Of a stretch of 51,872 bases of DNA, positions 12,186-40,329 are shown one piece after another (within the stretch, counting starts at the first letter, position 1; each line of letters opens with the position of its first letter). The notes under the pieces are model-generated. The model was not told the DNA's origin. It saw only the letters and a program-made list of their open reading frames with translations, and did no database searches. The DNA is taken from positions 1-51,872 of the forward strand of contig CACWIO010000001.1 of the NCBI GenBank assembly GCA_902760855.1. The letters run 5' to 3'. Source of the DNA: an uncultured Eubacteriales bacterium. GTDB lineage: Bacteria > Bacillota > Clostridia > Peptostreptococcales > Anaerovoracaceae. A program made the translations under genes and the position numbers.

Positions 12186-13346
12186 TTAGCCTTTGATTGT
12201 TCCCTGATCATCTACAGTGATCTTAGTAACTGCAGGAATGCTCTCGATTTCGCTTGAAACTTTTCTTGTTCCATCGAAGAGTTCCTTAACCAGTGTGTTG
12301 TAGTCAGCTTCCTGGAAGCCGTCAGCCCACTGAGTTGTTGTCGGCAGCTGTACATAGTTTTCAGCAGGTGTTTCGGATACGAGACCGAGGTTCTCGATCT
12401 TACCCTTGTAGTTATCCCAATTGCCCTCGCTGATAGCACCGAGGAGAGTCTTAACTGTAGGAGCGAGACCCTTCATAGCTGAAGTAACTGTCATGCCCTC
12501 TCCGTAAGCTCCGTCGATGATTCCGGCCTGGTCTACGTCTACTCCGATTACCTTGCCGCCTGTCTTAACAGCAGCCTCAGCTGCGGATGTGTAGATTCCG
12601 CCGCCGCATGCGAATACGCACTGTGTACCTGCGCCGTACCATGTGTCCATCTTAGCTGTGATATCAGCATCTCCGAAGAACTGTCCGCCGTATACGTACT
12701 TAATCTCTACGCCGTCAACTTCTCCCTCTGTAGCAGCAGCCTCAGCGCCCTGTACGAATCCGTGTCCGTATCTCTGTACAGCAGGTACTGCCATTCCGCC
12801 GAGGAATCCGAGCTTGGTGTATCCGAGCTTAACAGCAGCATATCCTGCCATGTAGCCGGCGAGCTCTTCCTGGTATACGGCACTGTATACGTTAGCGCCT
12901 TCGAATTCTCTTGTTCCGTATGCAGTCAGGTCACCCTCACTTACGTCGAGAGCTACGAACTTAACATCCGGATAAGTAGGTGTTACATCATAGATAGCCT
13001 GAGCAAATGCGAATCCTGGCATTACGATTACGTTGTAACCTTCCTCAATAGCCTCTTCCATTGAAGCCTCTCTGTCAGCGTCAGCATCGGATGCAGGTTT
13101 CTTGTATGTGAACTCGATTCCGTTTGCTTCGCAGAACTCTTTGCAAGCTTCGTAAGTTGTCTGGTTGAATGACTGGTCGTTGATGTCACCGTAGTCAGTT
13201 ACCATTGCAACCTTTACTTCTGATGCAGCTGCTTCCTCTCCGCCTTCCTCTGCAGGGGCCTCAGCTCCACCTTGATTTCCTCCTCCACAAGCTGCGAGTA
13301 CGAATACCATTACAGCTGCGAGGAGCATCATAAGAAATTTCTTCAT
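12186..13346 (-). CDS. BMP-family (PnrA/Med-like) nucleoside-binding lipoprotein
   Basis: Signal peptide with lipobox (VLAAC GGG) and a low-complexity linker. The body matches BMP family style (VAMVTDYGDINDQSFNQ...). It heads the ABC operon. Confidence 0.85.
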   Translation of the reverse strand: MKKFLMMLLAAVMVFVLAACGGGNQGGAEAPAEEGGEEAAASEVKVAMVTDYGDINDQSFNQTTYEACKEFCEANGIEFTYKKPASDADADREASMEEAIEEGYNVIVMPGFAFAQAIYDVTPTYPDVKFVALDVSEGDLTAYGTREFEGANVYSAVYQEELAGYMAGYAAVKLGYTKLGFLGGMAVPAVQRYGHGFVQGAEAAATEGEVDGVEIKYVYGGQFFGDADITAKMDTWYGAGTQCVFACGGGIYTSAAEAAVKTGGKVIGVDVDQAGIIDGAYGEGMTVTSAMKGLAPTVKTLLGAISEGNWDNYKGKIENLGLVSETPAENYVQLPTTTQWADGFQEADYNTLVKELFDGTRKVSSEIESIPAVTKITVDDQGTIKG

Positions 13347-13376
13347 CTTGATCCTCCTAAAACATAAGTTATTCTA

Positions 13377-13411
13377 GAAAAAATGATTCGTGGGCTTGGA
13401 TTTCCCTCGAA
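13377..13411 (-). promoter_or_regulatory. Terminator-like hairpin in the 5' leader of the BMP operon
   Basis: The - strand hairpin TTCGAGGG-aaatccaa-GCCCACGAA (plus-strand 13387-13411) is followed by TCATTTTTTCT, about 30 nt upstream of the RBS and ATG (13346). Confidence 0.4.
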
Positions 13412-13556
13412 TACCCGTTGCCCCAATTATAGACCATGAACACTTAAAATAAAAGAAATAATCTCCAAAAAAGCATAATCAAAAGATGCAAAAAAGCTAC
13501 CAATAATTGATGATAGTGTATAATAATCTTGCACATATTAATTGAAAGGAATAGAC

Positions 13557-14141
13557 ATGGCTAAACTATATTTTAAGTACGGGGCGATGGGATCTTCGAA
13601 GTCCGCTCAGGCCCTGATTACGAAGTTCAACTATGAAGAAAAGGGCATGACAGTCTGGCTGATCAAACCCGGCACCGACACTCGCGACGGAGCGGACATC
13701 ATCAAGAGCCGCATAGGTCTCAGCCAAAAGGCTCAGATAATCTCGCCTGAGCAGGATATCATAGAGGCTTATCATGAAGTCGGCAATTACGATGTCATCA
13801 TCGCAGATGAGGCGCAGTTCCTGACGCCGGCTCAGATAGAGCAGCTCAGAAAACTCGTCGATGCCGAGGATATTCCGGTGCTTTGCTTCGGCCTCAGGAC
13901 GGACTTTCTCACTCATTTCTTCCCGGGCGCACAGAGACTTATGGAGCTTGCCGACTCGATCACCGAGATCAAGACCATATGCGAGTGCGGCAGGAAGGCT
14001 ACTGTAAATGCGAGATTCGATGACAGCGGCCGCATAGTGACTCAGGGAGACCAGGTCGTGCTCGGCGGAAACGACAGATATACCGCAATGTGCCATAAAT
14101 GCTGGACTGACAGAATCAAAGAACAGAAATTGGGGCGTTAG
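13557..14141 (+). CDS. tdk: Thymidine kinase
   Basis: MAKLYFKYGAMGSSKS (P-loop) and the C-terminal Zn ribbon CECG...CHKC. The start is moved to the ATG at 13557, behind AAAGGA. Confidence 0.9.
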   Translation: MAKLYFKYGAMGSSKSAQALITKFNYEEKGMTVWLIKPGTDTRDGADIIKSRIGLSQKAQIISPEQDIIEAYHEVGNYDVIIADEAQFLTPAQIEQLRKLVDAEDIPVLCFGLRTDFLTHFFPGAQRLMELADSITEIKTICECGRKATVNARFDDSGRIVTQGDQVVLGGNDRYTAMCHKCWTDRIKEQKLGR

Positions 14142-15108: not shown

Positions 15109-16026
15109 ATGAATAAGTTCTTAGATATTAAAGATGAAGTAGCAGAGGCTATAGCAAACGGAAGACCGGTGGTGGCTCTTGAATCCACAATTATTTCGCA
15201 CGGCATGCCTTATCCGCAGAACGTAGAAACCGCTCTTAAAGTAGAGCAGGTGGTAAGAGATAACGGCGCAGTTCCCGCAACTATCGCAATTATAGGCGGC
15301 AGACTCAAAGCTGGACTGACAGAAGAGGAGATAGAATACTTCGGAAAGAAAGGACCTGAAATTCTCAAGGCTTCTCGCCGCGACCTCGCAGCTATATGCG
15401 CACGCGGACTCGACGGTGCATGCACGGTAACTACCACTATGATGATTGCCCACATGGCAGGTATTAAGATATTCGCCACGGGCGGAATCGGAGGAGTTCA
15501 TCGCGGAGCCGAGACTACTATGGATATTTCTGCGGATCTTGAAGAGCTCGCAAAGACTCCTGTTATGGTTGTTTGCGCGGGATGTAAATCAATACTCGAT
15601 ATTGGTCTTACTCTTGAATATCTCGAAACTCACGGTGTTCCTGTTTTATCTGTCGGAACCGAAGATTTCCCGGCATTTTATACATCTAAGAGCGGCTTCA
15701 AATCTGACTACAGAGTGGATACTCCTGCGGATCTCGCCGCAATTTATAAGGCTTCGAGAGATATGAATCTCAAGGGCGGAATATTGGTCGGAAATCCTAT
15801 ACCTGATGAATATTCTATGGATCCGGATGTAATTAATCCGGCAATCGATGCGGCAATCGCAGAGTGCAATGCTCTCGGAATAAAAGGAAAAGAGACCACA
15901 CCGTTCCTGCTCGCAAAGGTTAAAGAGCTCACAGGCGGAGACAGTCTCGATTCAAATATCCAGCTGGTATTCAATAATGCGAAAGTCGCAGCGCAGACCG
16001 CAGTCGAACTTTCAAAACTTTTTTAA
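15109..16026 (+). CDS. psuG: Pseudouridine-5'-phosphate glycosidase
   Basis: VALESTIISHGMPYPQN and GGIGGVHRG are typical of the YeiN/IndA family. Confidence 0.88.
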   Translation: MNKFLDIKDEVAEAIANGRPVVALESTIISHGMPYPQNVETALKVEQVVRDNGAVPATIAIIGGRLKAGLTEEEIEYFGKKGPEILKASRRDLAAICARGLDGACTVTTTMMIAHMAGIKIFATGGIGGVHRGAETTMDISADLEELAKTPVMVVCAGCKSILDIGLTLEYLETHGVPVLSVGTEDFPAFYTSKSGFKSDYRVDTPADLAAIYKASRDMNLKGGILVGNPIPDEYSMDPDVINPAIDAAIAECNALGIKGKETTPFLLAKVKELTGGDSLDSNIQLVFNNAKVAAQTAVELSKLF

Positions 16027-17126
16027 TTCATTCTAATAGGAAGAATTAGATAATTATATTTGTCGCCTTTTAGAGGACTTATGATGCATGGGCTTACGCT
16101 ATCTTTGAAGTTTATCTTTATTTCTTCTTCATCGATTACGGAAAGTGCATCCTTTAAGTATTTGGAATTGATTCCAATATTAAGGTCCTCTCCCTCATTT
16201 ATTATTTCAACCTTCTCTTCAATATTTCCTTCTTCATTTAGTGATGTGATATACATCATATCCTTTTGAATATTGAATCTGATGAGATTATTGTTTTGAA
16301 CTGATGCCAGAAGTGATGCTCTCTCAGTGCTCTTGAGAAGATCATCTCTTTTAACTCTAATGTTAATTTCTCCTACTCTGCTGAGAAGTCTTTCATAATC
16401 TATGAATTTGCCGGAGAATGTATTGATAGTAACTTTGTTATTATCGAATTTCATAATAACTTTATTATCTACTATTTCAAAGCTGAGTTTATCCTCTCCC
16501 TCGGCATCCATAATCTTGGCTGTTTCATTTATAAGCTTTGCAGGAATGATAACTCTTACATCCTGATTTTCATTTACTTCTATTTTGTATGTGGCAATTC
16601 TGAACGGATCTACTCCTACCATTCTCATAAATCCATCTTTTATCTCAAGAAGAACTCCGGTAAGTATGAGATTTATATCATCTGTAGATGCACTGAATGC
16701 TGTCTTTCTTATAAGAGTCTTAATATCTTCTTTACTTAGAATGATTTCATTATGTCCTTCATTCAATTTTATTTTAGGATAATCGTCTCCTCTGAAACAT
16801 ATGAGCTCTGAATTAGAACCTGCACATTTAATATTGAGTTTCCTGCTTTCATTATTGAAATCAAGCATTATATCTTCATCAGGAAGTTTATTGATAATTG
16901 CAGAGAAGAGTTTGGCCGGTACTACAAATTCACATGCCTCATCTGATTGCACTTTTATATTAGTTTCGATAGTAATATTGGTATCTGTTGCTGTGAGTTT
17001 CATATTATTATCCAAAACATTTATAAGAATTCCTTCAAGTATATTAGAAGTAGTTCTTACAGGAACAGAATGAGATACATTGTTAAGTGCTTTGTTTAGA
17101 TCATTTCTGCTGCAATAAATCTTCAT
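16023..17126 (-). CDS. dnaN: DNA polymerase III beta sliding clamp
   Basis: 367 aa with N-terminus MKIYCSRNDLNKALNNVSHSVPVRTTSNILEGILI, located directly downstream of dnaA. It is very AT-rich. Its stop codon overlaps the psuG stop (16023-16026). Confidence 0.9.
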   Translation of the reverse strand: MKIYCSRNDLNKALNNVSHSVPVRTTSNILEGILINVLDNNMKLTATDTNITIETNIKVQSDEACEFVVPAKLFSAIINKLPDEDIMLDFNNESRKLNIKCAGSNSELICFRGDDYPKIKLNEGHNEIILSKEDIKTLIRKTAFSASTDDINLILTGVLLEIKDGFMRMVGVDPFRIATYKIEVNENQDVRVIIPAKLINETAKIMDAEGEDKLSFEIVDNKVIMKFDNNKVTINTFSGKFIDYERLLSRVGEINIRVKRDDLLKSTERASLLASVQNNNLIRFNIQKDMMYITSLNEEGNIEEKVEIINEGEDLNIGINSKYLKDALSVIDEEEIKINFKDSVSPCIISPLKGDKYNYLILPIRMN

Positions 17127-17305
17127 GATGATGCCTTTCTATTATTATTAAATAGTTAGTAGTTATAGTAGATATTGTGGAATATGTGGATAAGTCATGA
17201 ATGATATGAAAAATTCACTTTTTGAGAGAATTTTTTAAGTTAATATCTACCCTTATAAAAAATTAAAAAGATGTTGATAAAACATTTAGCTTCTTTCTTA
17301 AATAA
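17127..17305. other. oriC part 2 (dnaA-dnaN spacer): tandem DnaA boxes, TAG-triplet run and AT-rich stretch
   Basis: TGTGGAATA (17176-17184) abuts the perfect box TGTGGATAA (17185-17193), and TGTTGATAA lies at 17272-17280. TAG TAG TTA TAG TAG (17157-17171) sits 4 nt from the boxes. AT-rich runs lie on both sides. Confidence 0.7.
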
Positions 17306-18646
17306 TTATTTCTTACTTTGAAGCTTAACTTTTATAGTCTCTATATTTTCGGCAAGCTCATTATCGTATTTGAGAGCTGCTTCTATCTTTTCAACTGCAT
17401 GAATAACTGTTGAATAATGTCTGTTTCCGAAAATTTTACCTATCTTAGGTAAAGATAAATCAGTGGTTTCGCGGCAAATATACATTGCAACCTGGCGCGG
17501 AAGTGTGATTTCTGCGTTACGCTTCGGTGAATCCATATCGCCTATTTTGATTTTATAATGATTGGCAACTATAGATCTGATGCGCTCAGGTGCAATTGCC
17601 TGCTCATTATCGCTGATAATATCCTTTAGAATATTTTTGGCATTTTCTATAGTAATCTTCTCATCAAGAAGCTGTGATAATCCGATTACTCTGTTATATG
17701 CACCTTCGAGTTCTCTTATATTATCTTTAACCTGATCAGCAATCAGTGAGAATACATCGTTGATTTCCGGTGTAATTTCAATATCCGATTTCTCTGCCCA
17801 GCTCTTTAAAATTGCAAGTCTGGTTTCGAAATCAGGCGGCTGAATATCCGCAACCATATTCCATTGGAATCTCGTAATAAGTCTCTCATCTACACCATGT
17901 AGTTTAATAGGTGAGCAATCACTTGTAATTACTATCTGTTTATTATTCTGATACAGAGCTTCGAATGTATAGAAGAATTCTTCCTGTGTACTTTCCTTAC
18001 CTTCCAAAAATTGAATGTCGTCTATGAGAAGTACATCGAGCTTCCTGTATTTATTTCTGAATGAACGAGTCTTATTATCTTTGATTGCTGAGATAAGTTC
18101 ATTTGTGAACATCTCGGTAGAAACATAAAGGACTTTTGCTTCCGGGTTATTCTTAATAATATGTACACCGATAGCCTGCATCAGATGAGTCTTACCGAGA
18201 CCGGAACCTCCGTAAATAAAGAGAGGATTATAGACACTTCCCGGATCTTCGGCAACCGCGACAGATACCGCATGCGCATATTTATTGGAATTGCCGACTA
18301 TAAAATCGTCGAAGTTGTATCTTGGATTGAAGAGTTTCTCCTGAGTAACCGGGCTCTTTTTCCTTGATGTATCTATCTTGGTAGTTTCGTATTCCTTATC
18401 CTGCTTAATGATAACGCGGTATTTTTTATCCATGCAGTTATTGACTGCATTTTCGATCTGATTGACGTAGTGATCTTTAATATGATTAATAAGACTTGCC
18501 TCGTTGGGCCAGGCAAGATAAAAGATACCTGAATCTTCCTCAATGTGATGAATGTAGAGAGGAGCTATCCAGGTAGTGTAACTCAGATTATTAGTTGCGT
18601 CTTTGAGGGAATTAAGTATGGTCCCCCATATCTTGTTCTTATCCAA
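17306..18646 (-). CDS. dnaA: Chromosomal replication initiator DnaA
   Basis: Walker A GGSGLGKTHL, Walker B LLIDDIQF, and domain IV LPKIGKIFGNRHYSTVIHAV. I prefer the TTG at 18646 (GGAGAG RBS 6 nt upstream, giving MDKNKIWG...) over the ORF-track GTG at 18673. Confidence 0.93.
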   Translation of the reverse strand: MDKNKIWGTILNSLKDATNNLSYTTWIAPLYIHHIEEDSGIFYLAWPNEASLINHIKDHYVNQIENAVNNCMDKKYRVIIKQDKEYETTKIDTSRKKSPVTQEKLFNPRYNFDDFIVGNSNKYAHAVSVAVAEDPGSVYNPLFIYGGSGLGKTHLMQAIGVHIIKNNPEAKVLYVSTEMFTNELISAIKDNKTRSFRNKYRKLDVLLIDDIQFLEGKESTQEEFFYTFEALYQNNKQIVITSDCSPIKLHGVDERLITRFQWNMVADIQPPDFETRLAILKSWAEKSDIEITPEINDVFSLIADQVKDNIRELEGAYNRVIGLSQLLDEKITIENAKNILKDIISDNEQAIAPERIRSIVANHYKIKIGDMDSPKRNAEITLPRQVAMYICRETTDLSLPKIGKIFGNRHYSTVIHAVEKIEAALKYDNELAENIETIKVKLQSKK

Positions 18647-18673
18647 AATTACTCTCCAATGGTTTGTGAACAC

Positions 18674-18800
18674 ATTTTACATAAAATTATCCACATAGGT
18701 AAAGGCTAATTTTTATTGAAATTATAGATAGTAGACTTGGTCAAAAAAATAGTTATCCACATATTGTTGATAAAATTGTTAATAAGTTTTAGGCAACACT
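18674..18800. other. oriC part 1 (dnaA upstream): DnaA-box cluster
   Basis: Perfect TTATCCACA at 18687-18695 and 18753-18761, and TGTTGATAA (1 mismatch, reverse) at 18765-18773, in AT-rich DNA between the divergent dnaA and rpmH. Confidence 0.7.
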
Positions 18801-18892
18801 ATATATTGTGTATAACTTCCTTTTTGCATCTTATGTATTTTTTTATACACCAGATGAGAGGCCAAACTTGAGCCGCGCATGCAAAAGACTTA

Positions 18893-18921
18893 TTGACTTG
18901 CCCAATGCCTTAAATTATAAT
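18893..18921 (+). promoter_or_regulatory. rpmH promoter
   Basis: TTGACT (18893-18898), 17 nt, then TATAAT (18916-18921). Confidence 0.6.
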
Positions 18922-19011
18922 GTTTTGGTCTATGTGCTTTTGGAATTTAGAGAGCACAAAAAGAATTACTTACATTATATATCTATATATTTTGGACAAG
19001 GAGAAACAGAG

Positions 19012-22545: not shown

Positions 22546-22659
22546 GTCCTTTCCTTCACAGTGTTAATACGCGCTAATAATACCATATTAGTAGTCGTGA
22601 GTGTAGGTTTAGAAAAAGAAACTTACTAATAAGAAGAGATAGTGGTATATAATGGACGC

Positions 22660-23850
22660 ATGAAAATTAACAGCTTGGTACTTGAAAATTTCAGAAATTA
22701 TAAGAATCTCGAAATTGACTTCGACGAGAGCAGGAACATTCTCGTGGGTGAGAACGCTCAGGGTAAGACCAATCTCGTGGAGGCAATTTATCTTACTGCG
22801 TTCGCGAGATCGTTTAGGACGAATAACGCCGCCGATATGATTTACTTCGGGGAGGCGGCGGGCAGAGTCAGCGCGGATGTGGAGAGTGAAGAGATTGACA
22901 AGAATATAAATATCACTCTGCGCGCTGACGGAAAGAAGATGATACAAAAGGACGGCAAGGCCGTGAAGCGGACTGCCGAACTTTTGAACACCGTCGTCGT
23001 TATTGTATTTACTCCGGACGATTTGCGGATTATCAAGGATAGTCCGGAGAAGAGGCGCGCGTTCATAAACCGCGAGCTTTCGCAGATGAGGCCGCGGTAT
23101 TATGAGCAGCTGCGTCGGTACAACGATGCTTTGAAGGAGAAGAACGCGCTGCTGAAAGGTTTTTTCAATGTAAAGAAAAAAACCTTTACGCGCGTCGACA
23201 ATTTAAGCCTGAACGACGACGCAGGAGCAAATCCATACGACAATTCTCGCAGGTACAACGAGGACCTGCTCGATGTCTACGATCGCCAACTCGCGGATGC
23301 AGGCTACGAACTTCTGCGCTACAGGATGGAGTTCACCGAGCAGCTCTCAGAGGAGGCCGCGGAGATAATGAAGAATATCTCGGACGGCAGAGAAGACCTC
23401 GAAATCAGATACAAGACATCATGCAACTACGTGACCGCAAGTGAAGGCAGGGATCTTCTGTACAGCCAAATCAGACATAACAGAGACAAAGACATATATA
23501 ACGGGAGCGCGTCTCTCGGACCGCACAGGGACGACATCGAATTCTATATAAACGGAAACGATGCCCGGAAGTTCGGCTCGCAGGGCCAGCAGCGTACTAT
23601 CGCGCTCTCGCTGAAATTCGCAGAAATCAGAATCGCCAGGCAAACTCTCGGCGAGGCGCCGGTGCTGCTGCTAGACGACGTTCTCTCAGAGCTGGATCCG
23701 GGCCGCCAGAGATTCCTGATCAGCGAGATAGACGACGTCCAGCTCTTCATCACGTCGGCGGAGCTCGCGGACGAAGTCCGGAGCGCCCTGCGCGGAGGCA
23801 CCCTCTTCCGCATCGAAGACGGCTCCGTCACCCGCGTCGACAAATACTGA
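22660..23850 (+). CDS. recF: DNA replication/repair protein RecF
   Basis: MKINSLVLENFRNYKNLEIDF, Walker A GENAQGKTNL, signature FGSQGQQRT and Walker B LLLDDVLSELD. The start is moved to the ATG at 22660. Confidence 0.9.
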   Translation: MKINSLVLENFRNYKNLEIDFDESRNILVGENAQGKTNLVEAIYLTAFARSFRTNNAADMIYFGEAAGRVSADVESEEIDKNINITLRADGKKMIQKDGKAVKRTAELLNTVVVIVFTPDDLRIIKDSPEKRRAFINRELSQMRPRYYEQLRRYNDALKEKNALLKGFFNVKKKTFTRVDNLSLNDDAGANPYDNSRRYNEDLLDVYDRQLADAGYELLRYRMEFTEQLSEEAAEIMKNISDGREDLEIRYKTSCNYVTASEGRDLLYSQIRHNRDKDIYNGSASLGPHRDDIEFYINGNDARKFGSQGQQRTIALSLKFAEIRIARQTLGEAPVLLLDDVLSELDPGRQRFLISEIDDVQLFITSAELADEVRSALRGGTLFRIEDGSVTRVDKY

Positions 23851-23940
23851 CATCGATTCAAACAATGCGAGACTGATTGTTATCATCGACTTCGCCAATT
23901 GCATTATTCTTTACGCTTTTCATTAAAGGCATTCAGCCGT

Positions 23941-24341
23941 GCAGTTATGGACAATCACCGCAGGCCCATGGATAAACGCATGCACAGAAGAATCGCACAC
24001 AAGATCTTCTGCACACCCGCTTACCCACAGGCCTTTAATAGTTATCCGCATCGGTGATTGCGCACAGCCTGCACAGCTGCTACGACTACCTTCTGAACAA
24101 CAATAACAGCATCAGCATTTTTCTCTTATACTTCTGCCCCTATCTCGTCCCCGTAATAATATTATTTTTCATCATAATATGGCTTTATCGTAGTAGCAGT
24201 GGCGGTGGATTATGTTGATAAGCGACACCAAGCAGATAGGAGCGGTGGATAAGTCGGAGGATAGAAGAACATTTGCTGATTCCATCGCAGCTATCCTTGG
24301 ACTTATCCATGGCTCCTCGCTTATCCACATAATCCATGGCC
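23941..24341. repeat. DnaA-box-rich non-coding element A (inverted partner of 38400-39097)
   Basis: Boxes: TTACCCACA 24021-24029, TTATCCGCA 24042-24050, TGTTGATAA 24213-24221, GGTGGATAA 24244-24252, and perfect TTATCCACA 24321-24329, plus weaker TTATCCATG-type sites. The reverse complement aligns with element B (see findings). Confidence 0.8.
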
Positions 24342-24413
24342 ATTTCACCTATACTGAGGCATGCTCCACAGACTGTGAAGCATATGATTTTGAAGAGGAC
24401 TTTTTTGAGTTTG

Positions 24414-24570
24414 TATGCATATTGTGGAAATTTTTGCTAATATGCATATTTTTCTTTTTAATTTGCTGTTTTCATGCTAATAATAGGTATAATTTAATTG
24501 AAATTAGCAGATAATCGCAGAATCAAATAAAAAAGTATGCATATATGAAAATATCTTGGAAATATGCATA
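24414..24570. promoter_or_regulatory. Four copies of the palindrome TATGCATA flanking a TATAAT element
   Basis: TATGCATA occurs at 24414-24421, 24441-24448, 24536-24543 and 24563-24570, forming two pairs each spaced 27 bp. A TATAAT lies at about 24488-24493 between the pairs, upstream of CDS 24668. Confidence 0.45.
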
Positions 24571-24667
24571 CGATTTAAAAAAACTGCTCTTTAATCTAAA
24601 AGTATTATTAGCGCTGAAAGGGTTTATACATTCTATATAGAACATCAGATTGCGAGGGTAAGCATTT

Positions 24668-25462
24668 ATGATCCATAGAAAAGAACTGGAGAGAATTCGC
24701 TCTATTATGATTGAGAGCAAGAATGATATTGAGTCAGAATTGAGAAACATGCCGGAAGGTGAACTATATTGCATGCGCAAACCAGACAGATGGGTATATT
24801 ATCAGCGCTTTCCAAAGAAGGGCAACAGGAAAAAGGAGAAGCGGGTTGGTATCACGAAGGACAACGAGAAAGTGTTTTCACTTGTGCGCAAAGAGTATCT
24901 GACTAAAGCCATCGCCATAATTGAGAAGGACATAAGGACTATAGACATGGCTATCAAGCATTATGCCAATTATGATGAGGAATCGGTGATGGCAAAGTTT
25001 CTTGAGAAGCATCCGGAGCTGAGAGAAGGCATATATCACGGAAAGCAAAGCGATGAAGAATGGGCAGACAGCTACGATCAGCAACAGAATTTCTATGATG
25101 AGAGCCGCAAACACACATCCGCCATGGGTGTGAAGATGAGATCTAAAAATGAAATATACATTTCTTCGCGACTGGATCATTACTCGATCCCTTACAGATA
25201 TGAGGCGTCTATAGCGCATCCTGATGTGGCCAGAGTTCCAGACTTTACTATCAGGAGACCGAGAGATGGGAAGATCATATATTGGGAACACTTAGGAATA
25301 ACTGACAGCGAAGATTACTTGCTGGGAAATGGAATTAAGTTCAGGGAATACAGAGATGTAGGAATAGTGCCATGGGATAATCTTATTGTTACATATGATG
25401 ATGCAAGTGGTAATATTGATGCAAAGATTATCGAAGCTATGATACAGGGCTGGTTGCTTTAG
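24668..25462 (+). CDS. Hypothetical protein with a C-terminal PD-(D/E)xK-like nuclease fold
   Basis: The C-terminal ~110 aa, SKNEIYISSRLDHYSIPYRYE...VPDFTIRR...IIYWEHLGI, fit an E...D...E-x-(K/L) restriction-endonuclease-like pattern. The N-terminal half is helical. The gene is low in GC. Confidence 0.45.
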   Translation: MIHRKELERIRSIMIESKNDIESELRNMPEGELYCMRKPDRWVYYQRFPKKGNRKKEKRVGITKDNEKVFSLVRKEYLTKAIAIIEKDIRTIDMAIKHYANYDEESVMAKFLEKHPELREGIYHGKQSDEEWADSYDQQQNFYDESRKHTSAMGVKMRSKNEIYISSRLDHYSIPYRYEASIAHPDVARVPDFTIRRPRDGKIIYWEHLGITDSEDYLLGNGIKFREYRDVGIVPWDNLIVTYDDASGNIDAKIIEAMIQGWLL

Positions 25463-25515
25463 GAAAGCACTTGAGGCGGTAGCCATTTTAGGCAATTGAA
25501 AAAAGGAAAAACAAG

Positions 25516-26391
25516 TTGAGCTTAGTGAATGCAATTAAAAGAGAATACGGGGAGGGCGTGGAGATAGCAAGCCGAAGGGCTGTGAGCGGTGGAGACATCA
25601 GCAGCGCTTACGAGCTTGAGCTTTCAAACGGCATTCGTGTTTTCTTGAAGATAAACAGCGCAGCAAGGGCAGATCTCTTTCGCGCAGAGGAAGAGGGCCT
25701 CTCGGCCATGAGGGAAACGAAAAGCGTGTCGGTTCCGCGCGTAATTGCAAGAGGAGTAGATGGAGACGAGGCTTTTTTGCTTATGGAGCAAATTGAAGCA
25801 GGGAGAGCCGGAAAAGAATCGTCCGAGAGACTTGGCAGAGAGCTCGCCTTTATGCATATGGCAGATAGCTCAAAGTTCACTCCCGGCGGCAAATACGGAT
25901 TCACTTCAGATAACTATATTGGGGAGTTTGCCCAGATAAATACACCAAAAGAAAAGTGGGCGGATTTCTTTGCGGAGTGCAGACTGCGCCCGCAGATAGA
26001 CATGGCAGCCTATTACTTCAGTTCAGAAGATATGAGGAAGTTCGACACGCTTCTCGACAAGCTAGACGAGTATTTACCGGAGCCCGAAAGACCTTCGCTT
26101 CTCCATGGAGACCTATGGTCAGGGAACTATCTCATAGATACAAATGGCAAACCCTGGCTAATCGACCCTGCGGCATATGTGGGGCATGCCGAGGCGGATC
26201 TTGCAATGACCGAGCTCTTCGGCGGCTTCGATGAACACTTCTACGGGGCGTACAAAGAAGCAGTCGGCATCGATAAAGGCTATGCGGAGAGAAGAGATCT
26301 CTACAACTTATATAATCTGATAAACCATCTCAATCATTTCGGCACCGGCTATCTCGGAGCTGTAATTAACACCTTGAAAAAATACACTTAA
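25516..26391 (+). CDS. Fructosamine/ketosamine kinase family protein
   Basis: LLHGDLWSGNYL and DPAAYVGHAEADLAMTELFGGF are typical of the fructosamine kinase family. TTG start. Confidence 0.85.
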   Translation: MSLVNAIKREYGEGVEIASRRAVSGGDISSAYELELSNGIRVFLKINSAARADLFRAEEEGLSAMRETKSVSVPRVIARGVDGDEAFLLMEQIEAGRAGKESSERLGRELAFMHMADSSKFTPGGKYGFTSDNYIGEFAQINTPKEKWADFFAECRLRPQIDMAAYYFSSEDMRKFDTLLDKLDEYLPEPERPSLLHGDLWSGNYLIDTNGKPWLIDPAAYVGHAEADLAMTELFGGFDEHFYGAYKEAVGIDKGYAERRDLYNLYNLINHLNHFGTGYLGAVINTLKKYT

Positions 26392-32961: not shown

Positions 32962-35196
<2,235 letters not shown>

Positions 35197-35217: not shown

Positions 35218-37758
35218 ATGGCTAATTTGCTAGACAACAGCAACATAATCGAGCACGAAATATACGATGAAATGAAAACCTCGTATATCGACTACGCCAT
35301 GAGCGTAATCGTCGGCCGTGCTCTTCCGGATGTCAGAGACGGACTCAAGCCGGTTCACAGGAGAATACTCTACGGCATGCACTCCCTAGGCATCACCCCG
35401 GACAAACCACACAAAAAATCCGCCCGTATCGTCGGAGAAGTAATGGGTAAATACCACCCGCACGGAGACTCCTCCATCTATGATTCGATGGTTAAGATGG
35501 CGCAGGATTTCTCGACGAGATATCCGCTCGTTGACGGACACGGCAACTTCGGTTCCGTGGACGGAGACGGCGCAGCGGCTTCGCGTTATACAGAAGCTCG
35601 CATGTCACCGTTCTCACTTCAGATGGTCCGCGACATCGAAAAGGACACCGTTGACTTCATCGACAATTACGACGGAGAAGAGCAGGAGCCTGTAGTACTC
35701 CCATCGAGAGTGCCCAACCTCCTGATAAACGGATCTAACGGAATTGCCGTCGGAATGGCTACATCAATTCCGCCTCACAACCTCGGCGAGACCATAGACG
35801 CCTGCGTTAAGAAGATCGACGAGCCGGATGCGACTTCCGCAGACCTTGCCAAGATCATCAAAGGACCGGACTTCCCGACGGGCGCGGTCATACTCGGTAA
35901 GAGTGCAGCGAAAGAGGCCTACCTCACAGGGCAGGGCAAGGTAAATGTCCGCTCGGTCTGCGAGATCAGCGAGGGCAAAGGCGGCAAGATGCAGATAGTT
36001 GTCTCCGAGATTCCGTACCAGGTCAACAAGGCAAGGCTCATCGAGTCGATGGCGGACCTCGTAAGGGATAAGAAGATCGAAGGCATCAGCGCAATTCGAG
36101 ACGAGTCGAACCGCGAGGGAACGAGAATCGTAATCGAGCTCAAGAGAGACTCGAACCCGAACGTAATTCTCAACAGACTGTATAAACACACCGCTCTTCA
36201 GACATCGTTCAGCATGATCATGCTGGCACTTGTCGACGGAGAGCCAAAGATACTCAATCTCCAGCAGATTATCGAGGAGTATCTCAAGCACCAGAAGACT
36301 GTAGTCACAAGGCGTACGAGATTTGACCTTGCTAAGGCAGAGGCCAGAGCTCATATCTTAGAAGGACTCATCATAGCGCTGGATAATATCGACGAGGTCA
36401 TCGCAACCATACGCTCGGCATACAATGACGCCAAGGAAAAACTGATGGTACGCTTCGGACTTTCCGAGATTCAGGCGCAGGCCATACTCGACATGAGGCT
36501 TGCCAAACTGCAAGGCCTCGAGCGCGAGAAGATTCAGGCGGAGTACGACGAGCTCCAGAAGAAGATTGCCTACTACAAGAGCCTGCTCGCAGATGACCAC
36601 AAACTCATGGGAGTTATCAAGGACGAGCTGCTCGAGATCAAAGAGAAGTGGGCAGATCCTCGCCGCACCAAGATCGTAGCGGACGAGGGCGAGCTCGATG
36701 AAGAGGCGCTCATCGACGAAGAGGATGTAGCGATTACGCTGACTCACCTCGGATATGTCAAGAGGGTGCCGGCAGATACATATAAGGCGCAGCGCCGCGG
36801 CGGCAAGGGCATAGTCGGACTGACCACGCGCGAGAGCGACTTCGTCAGAGACCTGATTATCACGAGCACGCACGACTACCTCATGTTCTTCACAGACATG
36901 GGCCGCGTCTACAAGATCAAGGCTTACGAGATTCCGGAAGCTTCCAGGACTGCCAAGGGCACGCCTGTTATCAACTTCCTCAATCTCAACTCGACAGAGC
37001 GCGTAACTGCGATGATTCCTATCCGCGAGTTCAGCCAGGACGAGTCGCTTGTCATGGTAACCCGCATGGGAACTATCAAGAAGACGCCGCTTAGCGAGTT
37101 CGATACAAACCGCAAGACCGGACTGATTGCCATCACACTGAAGGAAGGCGACAAGCTCATCTCCGTTGCACAGGCCACGGGAGACGATAACGTGCTCGTA
37201 GTCACCAAGCTCGGTAAGGCGATTGCCTTCTCCGAGAAGGACGTAAGACCTATGGGACGCAATGCCGGCGGCGTAAGAGCCATACTGCTCGAAAAGGATG
37301 ACGAGGTAGTATCCATGGAGCTTGACTCCGAGCAGACCAGGAAGATGCTCGTAATCACTGAGAACGGATTCGGTAAGAGGACGCCTCTCACTGAGTACAG
37401 GCTGCAGACAAGAGGCGGCAAGGGCGTAGCGACTTACGATAAGACCAAGTTCGGAAAGACCGGACATCTGGTCGGCGCTACCATCGTCAAGGACGAGGAC
37501 GAGGTCATGGTCATCAACTCCAACGGAGTCATCATCAGGATCAGAGCGAACGAAGTATCGACTTCGGGACGTACGACTCAGGGCGTTAAGATCATGAAGG
37601 TCGAAAAAGACAACCGCATTGTGTCGTTTGCCAAGGTCATCGATGAAGAGGATGCCGATAACGGCAAGTCCGCAAAGGGCGGTAAAGCCGCGAAGGACGA
37701 GAATCCGAACGTCGGAGCCGACGGAAGCGAACAACTGACCCTGACCACCGAGGAATAG
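35218..37758 (+). CDS. gyrA: DNA gyrase subunit A
   Basis: 846 aa with [23 protein letters not shown], the active-site region [11 protein letters not shown], and a C-terminal beta-pinwheel with an acidic/basic tail. Confidence 0.97.
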
Positions 37759-37776
37759 ATTGTGGGGACTTCAATA

Positions 37777-38313
37777 ATGAAGAGAAAACTGACAATAGTT
37801 CTTGTAATCATCATGACGCTGACTTTTACTGCCTGTTCAATATTTAAAAGTGAATGGGATCCGCGCAAACACTCATTAGGCGAAATCAGCTTTGATGTCC
37901 CGGAAGGATATAATGCAATACCGAGCTTCGACAGTGTTGTGATTAAGAAAGAAGATGAAAGCTTTCGAATTATTGTCGAGAAGGTAACCGGCGAATCCTG
38001 GACTGAAGTAGAAAGCGGACAGAAGTCTATAGAGGATGCGCGACGAGAACACTATGACTCTATTGCTTCTTATTGGGGCTCCGAACCAGTAGAAATTGCA
38101 GGATGCGAAGGAGTTATTCGCAGAGATTACGGAGAGGATGGGCAACTATACGATGATTTCGCAATATTTATAACAGACAATGCGGTCTATTCCGTTCTCT
38201 TCCTCAATGAGGTATATGATGACGAGGAAGAAATGCCACAGGAAGTATTTCCTCTAACAGATGAAGAAGACGCCCTCTTTGACACCTTTATTGCATCAAT
38301 TACAAAGGAATAA
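37777..38313 (+). CDS. Lipoprotein, function unknown (one copy of a domain duplicated in 39241-40320)
   Basis: MKRKLTIVLVIIMTLTFTAC lipobox. It shares ISFDVPEGY and a C-terminal LTDEEDALFDTFIASI pattern with the 39241 protein. Confidence 0.6.
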   Translation: MKRKLTIVLVIIMTLTFTACSIFKSEWDPRKHSLGEISFDVPEGYNAIPSFDSVVIKKEDESFRIIVEKVTGESWTEVESGQKSIEDARREHYDSIASYWGSEPVEIAGCEGVIRRDYGEDGQLYDDFAIFITDNAVYSVLFLNEVYDDEEEMPQEVFPLTDEEDALFDTFIASITKE

Positions 38314-38358
38314 CTAAGTTTAAAGGCCAGTAAAAAAGGCCTCAGAGATTAAACAAAG

Positions 38359-38389
38359 CTCAAGCTTCAAAAAAGCTTGGGCTTTTCTC
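38359..38389 (+). terminator. Intrinsic terminator after the gyrA-lipoprotein unit
   Basis: CTCAAGCTT (38359-38367), loop caaaa, CCCAAGCTT complement (38373-38381), then CTTTTCTC. Confidence 0.6.
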
Positions 38390-38399
38390 ATCTTCCAAG

Positions 38400-39097
38400 G
38401 GCCATGGATTATGTGGATAAGCGAAAGGCCATGGATAAGTCCAAGGATAGTTGCAAAAGCGTGCAAACAACTATCCTCCGACTTACCCACCACCTCTTTT
38501 CTTGGGGTCGCTTATCAACATAATCCACCGCCCCTACGAAGGCGATTATAAATAATAATAGTCATATACTTCTCCGAGGGAGAAAATGTCCATTTGAGAA
38601 GTATAAATCTCCTGAATTTCAACAGAATATACTTCTCATTTGGATTTTTTCTTATTTGAGAAGTATATTCGTCCATCGTTTTTTCCGGATGTACTTCTTA
38701 TTTGAAAAATTTTTCATTTAAGAAGTATATTTCTTCAAAGTCAGGCAGCGGATACCCTCAGATATACTTCTATTTTTTGAAAAATATCATTAGAGAAGTA
38801 TATCGCTTCAAATTTTTTCAAAATTATACTTCCCAAATCAGAAAAAATTTCATTTAAGAAGTATAAGTGTTCATAAGCTGGTACTCATAAAATGGACACG
38901 CAGCTACCGAGTTTAGCACTATAGTTTCTGGCTATTATTGCTATTCATAAGGCCGATCGAGTAGTCGTAGCAGCTGTGGAGGCTGTGCGCAATCACCCAT
39001 TCAAGAATAAAGCAGGCCTGTGGGTAAGAAGGTGGGCGGCGCTTATTCTGCCGTCCACGGGCTTATCCATAGGCCTGCGGTGATAGGGCATAACTCC
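38400..39097. repeat. DnaA-box-rich non-coding element B (inverted partner of 23941-24341) with an expanded AT-rich core
   Basis: Boxes: perfect TGTGGATAA 38412-38420, CATGGATAA 38430-38438, TTACCCACC 38483-38491, TTATCAACA 38512-38520, TGTGGGTAA 39019-39027 and TTATCCATA 39063-39071. The flanks align with the reverse complement of element A. Confidence 0.8.
38565..38865. repeat. Array of five tandem palindromic units (ten TATACTTCT/AGAAGTATA half-sites)
   Basis: Forward half-sites start at 38565, 38628, 38690, 38763 and 38825; reverse half-sites start at 38596, 38658, 38720, 38793 and 38856. Arms within a unit are 30-31 bp apart (start to start), and the unit period is 62-63 bp with one 73-bp step. 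Confidence 0.85.
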
Positions 39098-39240
39098 ATA
39101 GCTGTTGAAATAGGGTAAAGTAATGCGGGCGTATATTTGCGGGAATTGTTAAAAAATGCGCAAATTTAATGCTTTATAGAGGGGTTCATGTTAATATGGT
39201 TTGAGACTTATAAGTCTAAACTGAAAGGAGAATTTATATT

Positions 39241-40320
39241 ATGAAGAGTAAGTTTGTGAAGGCGGGGCTCCTGCTGATGATGTTTGTTATTATGACAGCG
39301 CTTAGCGCATGCGGCGGAGGCGCATCGATTTCCGAGACGACCCTGGATAACGAGGGTACAAATACGGAGGCTAATTGCGGTATAAGAGAAATAGTGTTTG
39401 CCATTCCGGATGGATGGAAAGTAGTTAATTCAGAGGAAGACCACTCTGTAGACATAGCAAAGGATGGGTCCAAACACAGCATATTTATCTATACAACAGA
39501 TCAGGAAGATCTGAGCAATTCTGAAGGCGACATCTCAAAGATGACTATTGACGAGTTTTTCGACAAATACTGCAAGGTAAGTGAAAAAGCCGTAAAAGAG
39601 ACGGAAATGGAAGCAAGTACAACAACCATATGCGGCTCGGAAGCTTATTACTGCAAGAGAAAAGCTGATAACGGATTTATCTCAGCAGATATCTGCTGGC
39701 TATATAACGACGTGATATACAGAATGACGCTCAATAATTATGAAAATTATGATGAAAATGGGCCGAAACCGGACGCCGTAGCTTACACTGATGAAGACAT
39801 TGCAGCGTTTGAATACCTGATTGCCAGCATCAAGTCCGGAGACGGAAATGCACTGCAAAAGGAAGCGTTTAAGATAGACTCCGTTGCAGGATTGTCTTTT
39901 GATGCACCGGAAGGATATGAAGTGAACTTGAGCGCAATAGACTGGGTTGAATTTGCTAATCCTGACAACAATACAGTACTTCAAATAATGACGACTAATG
40001 CGGACACACTTGACAACCACACTAAAGGAGACGGGAGCAAATATGCTAGCGTAGAGGATCTTTACAAAGATATGATCTGGGACGATATGACAGACGTTTC
40101 AGTCGATGGCATCACGGCTAAGAAAAGTGTCTATGATGAGGACGGAAAGATTGTAAACGCAGAGCTAAAACTCTTCTATGATGATACTTACTACGAGATA
40201 GCGATGATGTGCGATGACACCTGGACGGAAGATGGATCGCTCAATCCTGATTCTAAAGGATTAAGCGAATCTGATGTTGCGGCGTTTGATGCATTCTGCA
40301 AGTCCTTAAAGAAGAAATAA
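39241..40320 (+). CDS. Lipoprotein with two copies of the 37777-type domain, function unknown
   Basis: The lipobox is LSAC GGG. The motifs VFAIPDGWKV and LSFDAPEGYEV each open a repeat ending in ...DIAAFEYLIASIK and ...DVAAFDAFCKSLK. Confidence 0.6.
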   Translation: MKSKFVKAGLLLMMFVIMTALSACGGGASISETTLDNEGTNTEANCGIREIVFAIPDGWKVVNSEEDHSVDIAKDGSKHSIFIYTTDQEDLSNSEGDISKMTIDEFFDKYCKVSEKAVKETEMEASTTTICGSEAYYCKRKADNGFISADICWLYNDVIYRMTLNNYENYDENGPKPDAVAYTDEDIAAFEYLIASIKSGDGNALQKEAFKIDSVAGLSFDAPEGYEVNLSAIDWVEFANPDNNTVLQIMTTNADTLDNHTKGDGSKYASVEDLYKDMIWDDMTDVSVDGITAKKSVYDEDGKIVNAELKLFYDDTYYEIAMMCDDTWTEDGSLNPDSKGLSESDVAAFDAFCKSLKKK

Positions 40321-40329
40321 GAAATAATT

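Follow-up and report, generated by a model that had tools for sequence, protein, structure and literature searches.

The 51,872-nucleotide stretch analysed here (the window: contig CACWIO010000001.1, a rumen metagenome scaffold, ENA ERZ28614730, scaffold_351) comes from an uncultured Mogibacterium-like bacterium, whose GyrA is 90-91% identical to those of named Mogibacterium metagenome-assembled genomes. It spans the origin region, with dnaN and dnaA on the minus strand and rpmH, rnpA, yidC, jag, recF, gyrB and gyrA on the plus strand (Table 1). Our subject is a non-coding element downstream of gyrA, which we call B; it encloses an array of ten short half-sites (TATACTTCT / AGAAGTATA) between two clusters of DnaA boxes, and has an inverted partner, element A, just after recF.

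A ten-site array downstream of gyrA

The half-sites occupy positions 38565-38865, five on each strand (at most one mismatch), and pair into five palindromic units, each running from the start of its plus-strand site to the end of its minus-strand site. A motif scan returned every half-site that a sequence-only reading of this DNA had described, and the 14-bp arms and near-complete palindrome which it had noted are both real. The units start 63, 62, 73 and 62 bp apart and consist of 9-10-bp arms around an A/T-rich centre of about 20 bp, often GAAAAATTT-like. Successive half-site centres lie 32, 31, 31, 31, 31, 42, 31, 31 and 32 bp apart, that is, three helical turns each and four at the 42-bp step. 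The distance within a unit equals that between units, making the array a lattice of sites of alternating orientation rather than five separate units. All ten sites fall within about 0.25 turn of each other, including across the 11-bp longer spacer, and thus on one helical face.

Chance origin of this cluster is excluded: the window holds 27 matches to TATACTTCT with at most one mismatch, against 11.9 +/- 3.7 in shuffled sequences (a number reached in 0 of 100 shuffles), and ten of the 27 are packed into 301 bp. An assembly duplication or artefact is likewise ruled out, since the units are just 62-75% alike in pairwise comparison. Mean pairwise identity between units is 95.6% over the 18 half-site columns versus 45% over the other 46; 88 of the 90 half-site positions are intact, and only 2 of 625 alternative block placements match the conservation of the half-sites. 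All ten sites have one common sequence, with no pair-by-pair co-variation, and their two mismatches show no strand preference, each strand having one G-U wobble.

The G+C content of the array is 28%, and its segment 38763-38862 ranks fourth among the least stable 100-bp stretches in the window. Each unit can fold into a hairpin, and the array as a whole folds far more stably than shuffled sequences, with a z of -8.6 on each strand; the single shared site sequence, taken with equal folding on both strands, favours recognition of the duplex over a strand-specific RNA. There is no sign of coding potential in the region, which has only unsupported open reading frames of at most 57 codons. Rfam gave no family at gathering thresholds in the whole window and only chance-level hits (E <= 1) in 38300-39250. 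Promoter-like sites number two in the array region, where 2.9 are expected, and the scan gave none in the upstream region of A.

Table 1. Positions of the array units, element modules, DnaA boxes and neighbouring genes in the window
Feature	Position	Strand	Sequence or build	Remarks
Unit 1	38565-38605		TATACTTCT-N23-AGAAGTATA, G+C-richer centre	minus-strand half-site 38597-38605; counterpart of the single half-site of A
Unit 2	38628-38667		TATACTTCT-N22-AGAAGTATA	minus-strand half-site 38659-38667; perfect 14-bp arms 38625-38638 / 38657-38670
Unit 3	38690-38729		TGTACTTCT-N22-AGAAGTATA	minus-strand half-site 38721-38729; near-complete 42-bp palindrome 38689-38730, centre GAAAAATTTTTC
Unit 4	38763-38802		TATACTTCT-N22-AGAAGTATA	minus-strand half-site 38794-38802; follows the sole 33-bp spacer, helical phase kept (42 bp = 4 turns)
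Unit 5	38825-38865		TATACTTCC-N23-AGAAGTATA	minus-strand half-site 38857-38865
B L-module	38397-38535		quasi-palindrome, about 8 DnaA-box-like 9-mers	perfect box 38412-38420; 82% identical to A L-module, inverted
B tandem DnaA boxes	38512-38529	+	TTATCAACA + TAATCCACC	facing the core
B R-module	38961-39104		palindromic DnaA-box cluster	74% identical to A R-module, inverted
B R-module box	39019-39027	-	TTACCCACA	
B R-module box	39063-39071		TTATCCATA	
A R-module	23934-24089			partner copy, orientation opposite to B
A core	24090-24197		about 108 bp	half-site TATACTTCT 24127-24135; DnaA-trio-like TAGTAGCAG 24191-24199
A L-module	24198-24344		inward tandem boxes, then CTG CTA CTA	boxes at 24204-24221, minus strand
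Two 36-bp palindromes	24413-24448, 24535-24570		GTATGCATA-N-TATGCATA	plus strand, upstream of the 264-codon gene
264-codon gene	24668-25462	+		accompanies A-type elements
dnaN	16023-17126	-		
oriC tandem boxes	17176-17193		TGTGGAATA + TGTGGATAA	next to TAG-type trios 17157-17175
dnaA	17306-18673	-		
oriC further boxes	18687, 18753, 18765, 18807			span 18687-18815
recF	22642-23850	+		
gyrB	33202-35196	+		
gyrA	35218-37758	+		

Elements A and B, their family and the accompanying gene

In B, the array lies in a core of about 420 bp between an L-module and an R-module, both modules being long imperfect palindromes dense in DnaA-box-like 9-mers. The layout proposed earlier, in which the AT-rich array stands between DnaA-box clusters, holds, as does the pairing of B with A: the latter (23934-24344) is an inverted copy of the two-module build of B, and its lone half-site, where the earlier account had placed it, aligns with unit 1. 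With at most one mismatch allowed, the two elements have nine DnaA boxes in about 1.1 kb, four in B (38412, which is perfect, 38512, 39019 and 39063) and five in A, while the whole 52 kb has 28, where chance would give 9.6. The distance from dnaA is about 5.5 kb for A and about 20 kb for B.

As inverted copies 14 kb apart, A and B enclose gyrB-gyrA together with several strain-specific genes, and if the two copies recombined, the gyrase operon near oriC would be inverted; no such inverted arrangement was seen among the relatives. The outer arms of the R-module differ by one paired change (GTGCAG/CTGCAC in A, ATGGAG/CTCCAC in B), a hint, from few sequences, that the complementarity of the long palindrome is itself maintained.

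The two elements belong to a small family of origin-like elements of Mogibacterium-like rumen bacteria, found at three or more different loci (L numbers label the database loci compared with the window). A lies between recF and a kinase gene, L112, L118 and L119 between radical-SAM and DNA-alkylation-repair genes, and L120-L129 between an SDR gene and an HTH gene, upstream of mraZ. These relatives came from a search of JGI metagenomes with a 20-mer of the L-module, which gave one true relative (L111), from a search with the 264-residue protein (L112-L114), and from a protein database search with the pseudo-reading frame that gene callers place on the L-module (L118-L129). All have the same order: R-module, core, L-module, 300-530 bp, and a gene of 264-280 codons. 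The core ranges from about 60 bp (L120) to the full length seen in B, and it contains palindromic units in B only; none were found in the cores of other members, those of A, L111, L112, L118 and L120 included, so the array is, as had been proposed, an expansion specific to B.

In the L-module, the inner arm has the sequence TTATCAACA + TAATCCAC(A/C) + GCC(N) and leads into DnaA-trios: CTA CTA CTA in L111, L112, L118 and L119, and CTG CTA CTA in A. In B the tandem boxes are followed by GCCC and then CTA CGA AGG, which is one good trio and amounts to a degenerate motif of the basal-unwinding-system kind. Origin unwinding is associated with a box pair, a 13-bp spacer and at least three trios (PMC8287927), and the L-module of A fits that pattern with its box, 13-bp spacer and three trios. 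Scanning for a DnaA box or box pair followed by at least three trios within 16 bp (PMC8287927) picks out A, L111, L112, L118 and L119 and does not pick out B; in L119 and L120 the edge of the R-module bears a second box-plus-trio, which also faces inward. In a looser box-plus-trio scan, shuffled windows average 1.1 hits each, so that the origin-motif argument rests on the versions with tandem boxes and perfect trios, and not on B. By their motifs, then, A/B-type elements are origin-like accessory elements, and B is a strain-specific 'solo' copy of one. The L-module 20-mer does not occur in IMG/VR, and no convincing terminal repeats or target duplications were found around the A cassette.

The 264-residue protein encoded beside A has no sequence match in Pfam, NCBIfam, PHROG or PDB. 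Its AlphaFold model (pLDDT 87) shows an N-terminal helix, beta-hairpin and helix followed by an alpha/beta C-terminal domain, and in the family of 264-280-residue proteins the N-terminal part is a prefoldin-like coiled coil. The conserved residues (E162, P191-D192, D200-x-K202 and E207-H208) fit a predicted PD-(D/E)xK nuclease fold. Foldseek returned weak PD-(D/E)xK hits only (R2 endonuclease domain, Hjc, NucS, MunI and XisH), and the C-terminal domain matches the PADLOC candidate-defence model PDC-S68 (E = 2e-26). The family is uncharacterised and comprises 455 database clusters, mostly from contigs of 1-6 kb.

Every family member examined has its own lineage-specific motif repeated upstream in both orientations. 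Beside A and at L118 and L119 there are two palindromes with TATGCATA pairs 27 bp apart, closely similar to the CATGCATA pairs, 29 bp apart, of L111; L112 has two palindromes with TTCATACAT pairs 33-34 bp apart, L120-L129 seven CTAGTATA sites 29-63 bp apart, L003 (gene at 13332-14126) a 4 x 60-bp array plus two palindromes, and L115 and L116 short repeats. The 36-bp palindromes next to A share the build of the B units and differ in their half-site. Closer to B in sequence is L120, where CTAGTATAA has AGTATA(A) in common with AGAAGTATA(A/T) of B and where the unit centres are alike as well (GAAAAATTTTTC in B, GGAAATTTTTGC in L120). Proteins of the TATGCATA type and of the TTCATACAT type (L112) are 85-88% identical, and 15 of their 39 differences fall in residues 22-43, which in the model form the end of helix 1 and the beta-hairpin; this is compatible with those residues setting site specificity, an oligomerisation role being equally possible.

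Insertions near a conserved chromosome origin

In L082, a close relative (GyrA 98%, gyrBA 92-94% nucleotide identity to the window), recF is followed after 4 bp by a fructosamine-kinase gene and gyrA after 67 bp by dtd. From this gene order, 23851-25544 and 37746-40329 of the window are insertions, the first consisting of A and the 264-codon gene and the second of a gene for a 178-residue lipoprotein, B, and a gene for a 359-residue lipoprotein. Neither A nor B occurs in relatives whose GyrA is 98-99% identical; L083 (GyrA 99%) and L002 (98%) have an isochorismatase gene after gyrA, and others have a lipoprotein gene, unrelated 30-bp or 60-bp tandem arrays, the 264-codon cassette, or nothing. 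No relative examined has a DnaA-box cluster after recF or gyrA. L003 and L004, whose GyrA proteins are identical, differ by a 1,412-bp segment with an array and the 264-codon gene. This comparison of gene orders marks the gyrA-dtd spacer as a hot spot for insertions and repeats in the lineage. The arrays downstream of gyrA in these two relatives (L003 12600-13040; L004 10840-10980), unrelated to that of B, have repeats of about 25-30 bp containing CGCTAAAAC, plus four 60-bp repeats.

The canonical oriC lies on both sides of dnaA, at 17.1-19.0 kb, with a dnaA-dnaN motif of the form TAGTAG...TGTGGAATATGTGGATAAG. DNA stability in the window is lowest in the dnaA-flanking spacers, the orientation of the genes and the cumulative GC skew switch at 13-19 kb, around dnaA/rpmH, and the box cluster at dnaA is present in relatives too. 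By blastn, the A and B modules have no homology with the canonical oriC region or with the intergenic DNA of relatives. B shares with an oriC the DnaA-box cluster and the AT-rich, easily melted region; it lacks the three successive trios, a switch of skew or orientation (GC skew is positive on both sides of it) and a conserved position among close relatives. Since the A and B insertions are missing from the closest relatives, they are not the chromosome origin, and the origin option of the sequence-only reading, taken in that sense, is not supported.

Three further features of the region deserve mention. The segment with dnaN, dnaA and their spacers (16023-19000) is an island of 32-36% G+C in a genome of about 50%; because an independent assembly (L082) shows its junction with rpmH/rnpA at 85% identity, the island is no chimera, and it may reflect an old replacement of a dnaA-dnaN-oriC cassette or strong local AT pressure. 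A 5.5-kb segment missing from L082 (26393-31928) encodes two tandem adenine-deaminase paralogues (670 and 580 residues) and a 523-residue protein without a family match. Upstream of gyrB, and kept in L082, 32051-32959 encodes a fusion of HTH_3 and Uma2 (PD-(D/E)xK) which matches the PADLOC candidate-defence model PDC-S03 (E = 3e-37).

What the array may be

The explanation that we prefer, while regarding it as tentative and as falling short of probable, is that the array is a phased set of protein-binding sites, derived by tandem duplication from a unit kept in A as a single half-site, with a member of the 264-residue family as candidate binder. As judged from the alignment of the two elements, the array arose by such a duplication, and the most economical reading is that the 9-mers would since have been kept by selection. 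The contrast between half-sites and remaining columns points to selective conservation and so argues for binding sites, as does the phasing across the longer spacer; the lineage-specific palindromes in front of the 264-280-codon genes supply a family context. Among the options that had been offered earlier, an array for a dimeric DNA-binding protein, here predicted from conservation and phasing, fits best. We infer that the leading candidate is a family member of matching specificity. A dimeric or higher-order protein would occupy one face of the DNA over the whole B core, just where an origin-type element would melt, and the resulting nucleoprotein stack might occlude or regulate the AT-rich core between the DnaA boxes or, alternatively, serve as a sink for the binding protein.

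Several observations weigh against this. The window's own 264-codon gene has TATGCATA upstream rather than TATACTTCT, so that binding would call for another family member or for an unrelated protein, and no protein of such other specificity was seen in the 52 kb. The palindromes of other family members are located between L-module and gene, and only in B do they lie in the core; site spacing at the other loci is 27-35 bp, with no strict 31, and the regularity in B follows in part from the duplication of one 62-bp unit. The beta-hairpin of the modelled protein may serve prefoldin-like oligomerisation instead of DNA reading. Finally, the array is known from a single metagenome scaffold, and hence has no between-genome conservation to show.

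An unlikely alternative, though the one that survives best, is that A and B are DnaA-dependent modules of an accessory origin or unwinding region, perhaps derived from a mobile replicon or an old oriC, with the array as unwinding region or as initiator-binding iterons. The nine clustered DnaA boxes, the box, spacer and trio pattern of A and four of its relatives, the second inward motif in L119 and L120, and an L-module motif closely mirroring that between dnaA and dnaN all speak for it, as does the low stability of the array, which is one of the four lowest for 100-bp stretches in the window. In B itself, however, the trios are degenerate, and the loose scan also gives hits in shuffled windows; A and B are missing from otherwise collinear relatives, and the window has an intact oriC of the canonical kind at dnaA, conserved and placed at the strand-bias switch. 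No known initiator, helicase or partition gene adjoins B, no plasmid or phage similarity was found, and ten invariant alternating 9-mers would be unusual for unwinding elements.

The closest match for the flanking modules is with DnaA-box clusters outside oriC, which are likewise non-coding and near it. Six oriC-proximal clusters of this kind (DBCs), a class expected to bind or titrate DnaA and to delay initiation, are known in Bacillus subtilis (PMC3245932). The likeness, one of box content and position, extends to E. coli datA, which is of the same kind, but the A and B modules are strain-specific, lie at different loci in relatives and are built as long palindromes, and A/B-type elements carry a box-plus-trio motif and are paired with a gene of predicted nuclease fold, B moreover enclosing its ten-site array. 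The basal unwinding system of bacterial origins consists of tandem DnaA boxes, a short spacer, DnaA-trios and AT-rich DNA (PMC8287927, PMC6669920), and A-type elements match it in order and spacing: box, box, a GC-rich 3-4 bp, CTA trios and an AT-rich core. Unlike that system, A and B lie off the strand-bias switch and are missing in close relatives, and in B the motif is degenerate and palindromic repeats take the place of the unwinding region.

In replicon origins of the iteron type (pSC101, R6K, P1, lambda ori), DnaA boxes and AT-rich DNA are combined with repeated specific binding sites, the iterons being direct repeats of 17-22 bp in helical phase. B resembles them in these three respects, its binding sites being predicted, and A-type elements in having palindromic sites before the adjacent gene, but an origin of this type does not fit B, whose 9-bp sites alternate in orientation at distances of 31-32 bp. 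No initiator (rep) gene adjoins B, the two lipoprotein genes on its flanks having no family hits, and the 264-codon gene matches no Rep family. A plasmid or phage origin was rejected: blastn with B, even in its 'distant' setting, gave no match among PLSDB plasmids or GenBank phages.

Less likely still is a hairpin repeat of the REP/BIME or BOX kind, whose effect, for example on transcript stability, termination or gyrase binding, would come from RNA or cruciform DNA and not from a dedicated site-specific protein. REP/BIME clusters and pneumococcal BOX elements (A-Bn-C) are tandem intergenic palindromic units, and B resembles them in its intergenic position downstream of gyrA, in conserved end modules around a variable number of internal units (the core being of such different length in L120 and B) and in the strong folding of each unit; the same slot has unrelated tandem arrays in L003 and L004. 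Against this, the motif, which the sequence-only reading had weighed as a possible common dispersed REP/MITE-like repeat, shows no such dispersal in the window, the relatives' loci, the GTDB species genomes or IMG/VR. Beyond the half-site in A, no further copy occurs in the 52-kb window, none was found in about 150 kb from relatives, and TATACTTCT-N20-24-AGAAGTATA gave, at chance level, 76 single hits and no array in 185,579 GTDB species genomes (about 43 being expected by chance in 596 Gb, and more in AT-rich genomes) and 19 single hits and no array in IMG/VR; no related array turned up in PLSDB plasmids or GenBank phages either. The arms are identical between units, without co-variation or any strand preference in their mismatches, and the stems would be A/U-rich with 20-nt loops; a terminator-like hairpin already stands between the upstream gene and B, and Rfam offers no match. 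B further differs from REP and BOX elements in that no dispersal is detectable in the sequence searched, its A/T-rich arms are invariant and its end modules are DnaA-box clusters.

Six of the 76 genome hits (L013, L020, L048, L055, L062 and L078) are in Pontibacter, at non-homologous loci and with different centres, and L048 has about seven AAGTATA repeats near its hit. So many hits in a single genus are far above chance and point to a palindromic site with the same arms that is dispersed there.

It is improbable, in our judgement, that the array is a functionless tandem duplication in a hypervariable intergenic hot spot, its arm conservation a by-product of repeat generation or homogenisation. 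The gyrA-dtd slot does differ in every relative, the array occurs in one scaffold only, and the cores of the element family are hypervariable. On the other hand, 88 of 90 half-site positions have stayed intact while the remainder is about 55% diverged, a pattern that neutral divergence cannot produce, gene conversion would homogenise whole units and not 9-bp arms, and helical phase is preserved over the longer spacer.

We give equally little credence to a more far-reaching proposal: that A/B-type elements would be small mobile DnaA-dependent mini-origins moving with the nuclease-fold gene, each with two inward-facing box-plus-trio unwinding motifs around its core, and that the lattice in B would dock a partner silencing or licensing unwinding. 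If true, this would be an undescribed way of controlling or exploiting DnaA outside oriC.

Other identities can be dismissed briefly. A ParB-type centromere, raised in the sequence-only reading, is not borne out: B has no parS-like site, its arms being 22-23 bp apart, unlike a compact parS-like palindrome, no partition genes lie near it, and none of the main open reading frames scanned from 12 to 48 kb has a ParA/ParB domain. In the F-plasmid centromere sopC, a series of tandem units of 43 bp, SopB binds the short inverted repeat that every unit contains; B is like it in its tandem units with a predicted palindromic protein site and an expandable copy number, and unlike it in that the half-sites are 22 bp apart rather than adjacent, with neither parS-like sequence nor parA/parB genes nearby. 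The build of the array does not fit parS, Spo0A or CtsR sites or such operators, in agreement with the earlier remark that the motif resembles none of them, and a resemblance of the unit centres to CodY sites was too weak to be used. A CRISPR array was rejected (repeats 62-75% alike, spacers mutually related, no cas domains found), as was an array like ToxI of type III toxin-antitoxin systems, where direct tandem repeats stand right before a ToxN-type gene, the units of B being palindromic and the next gene, for the 359-residue lipoprotein, lying 376 bp away beyond the R-module.

B thus combines known kinds of element, namely DnaA-box clusters and iteron- or operator-like arrays, and the very narrow distribution of its array limits both confidence and general importance. 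If nothing binds the array, it is simply a hypervariable repeat at an intergenic site prone to insertions in an uncultured rumen bacterium. The expectation for bacteria is a single origin and few other regions that bind DnaA strongly, and in this window a strain-variable element with origin motifs occurs as two inverted copies, both within 20 kb of oriC and one on each side of gyrB-gyrA. Should the array dock a protein, it would offer a tractable system for how ectopic origin-like DNA stays quiet or titrates DnaA, and would give a first function to the 264-residue coiled-coil/nuclease family with its fast-evolving palindromic sites.

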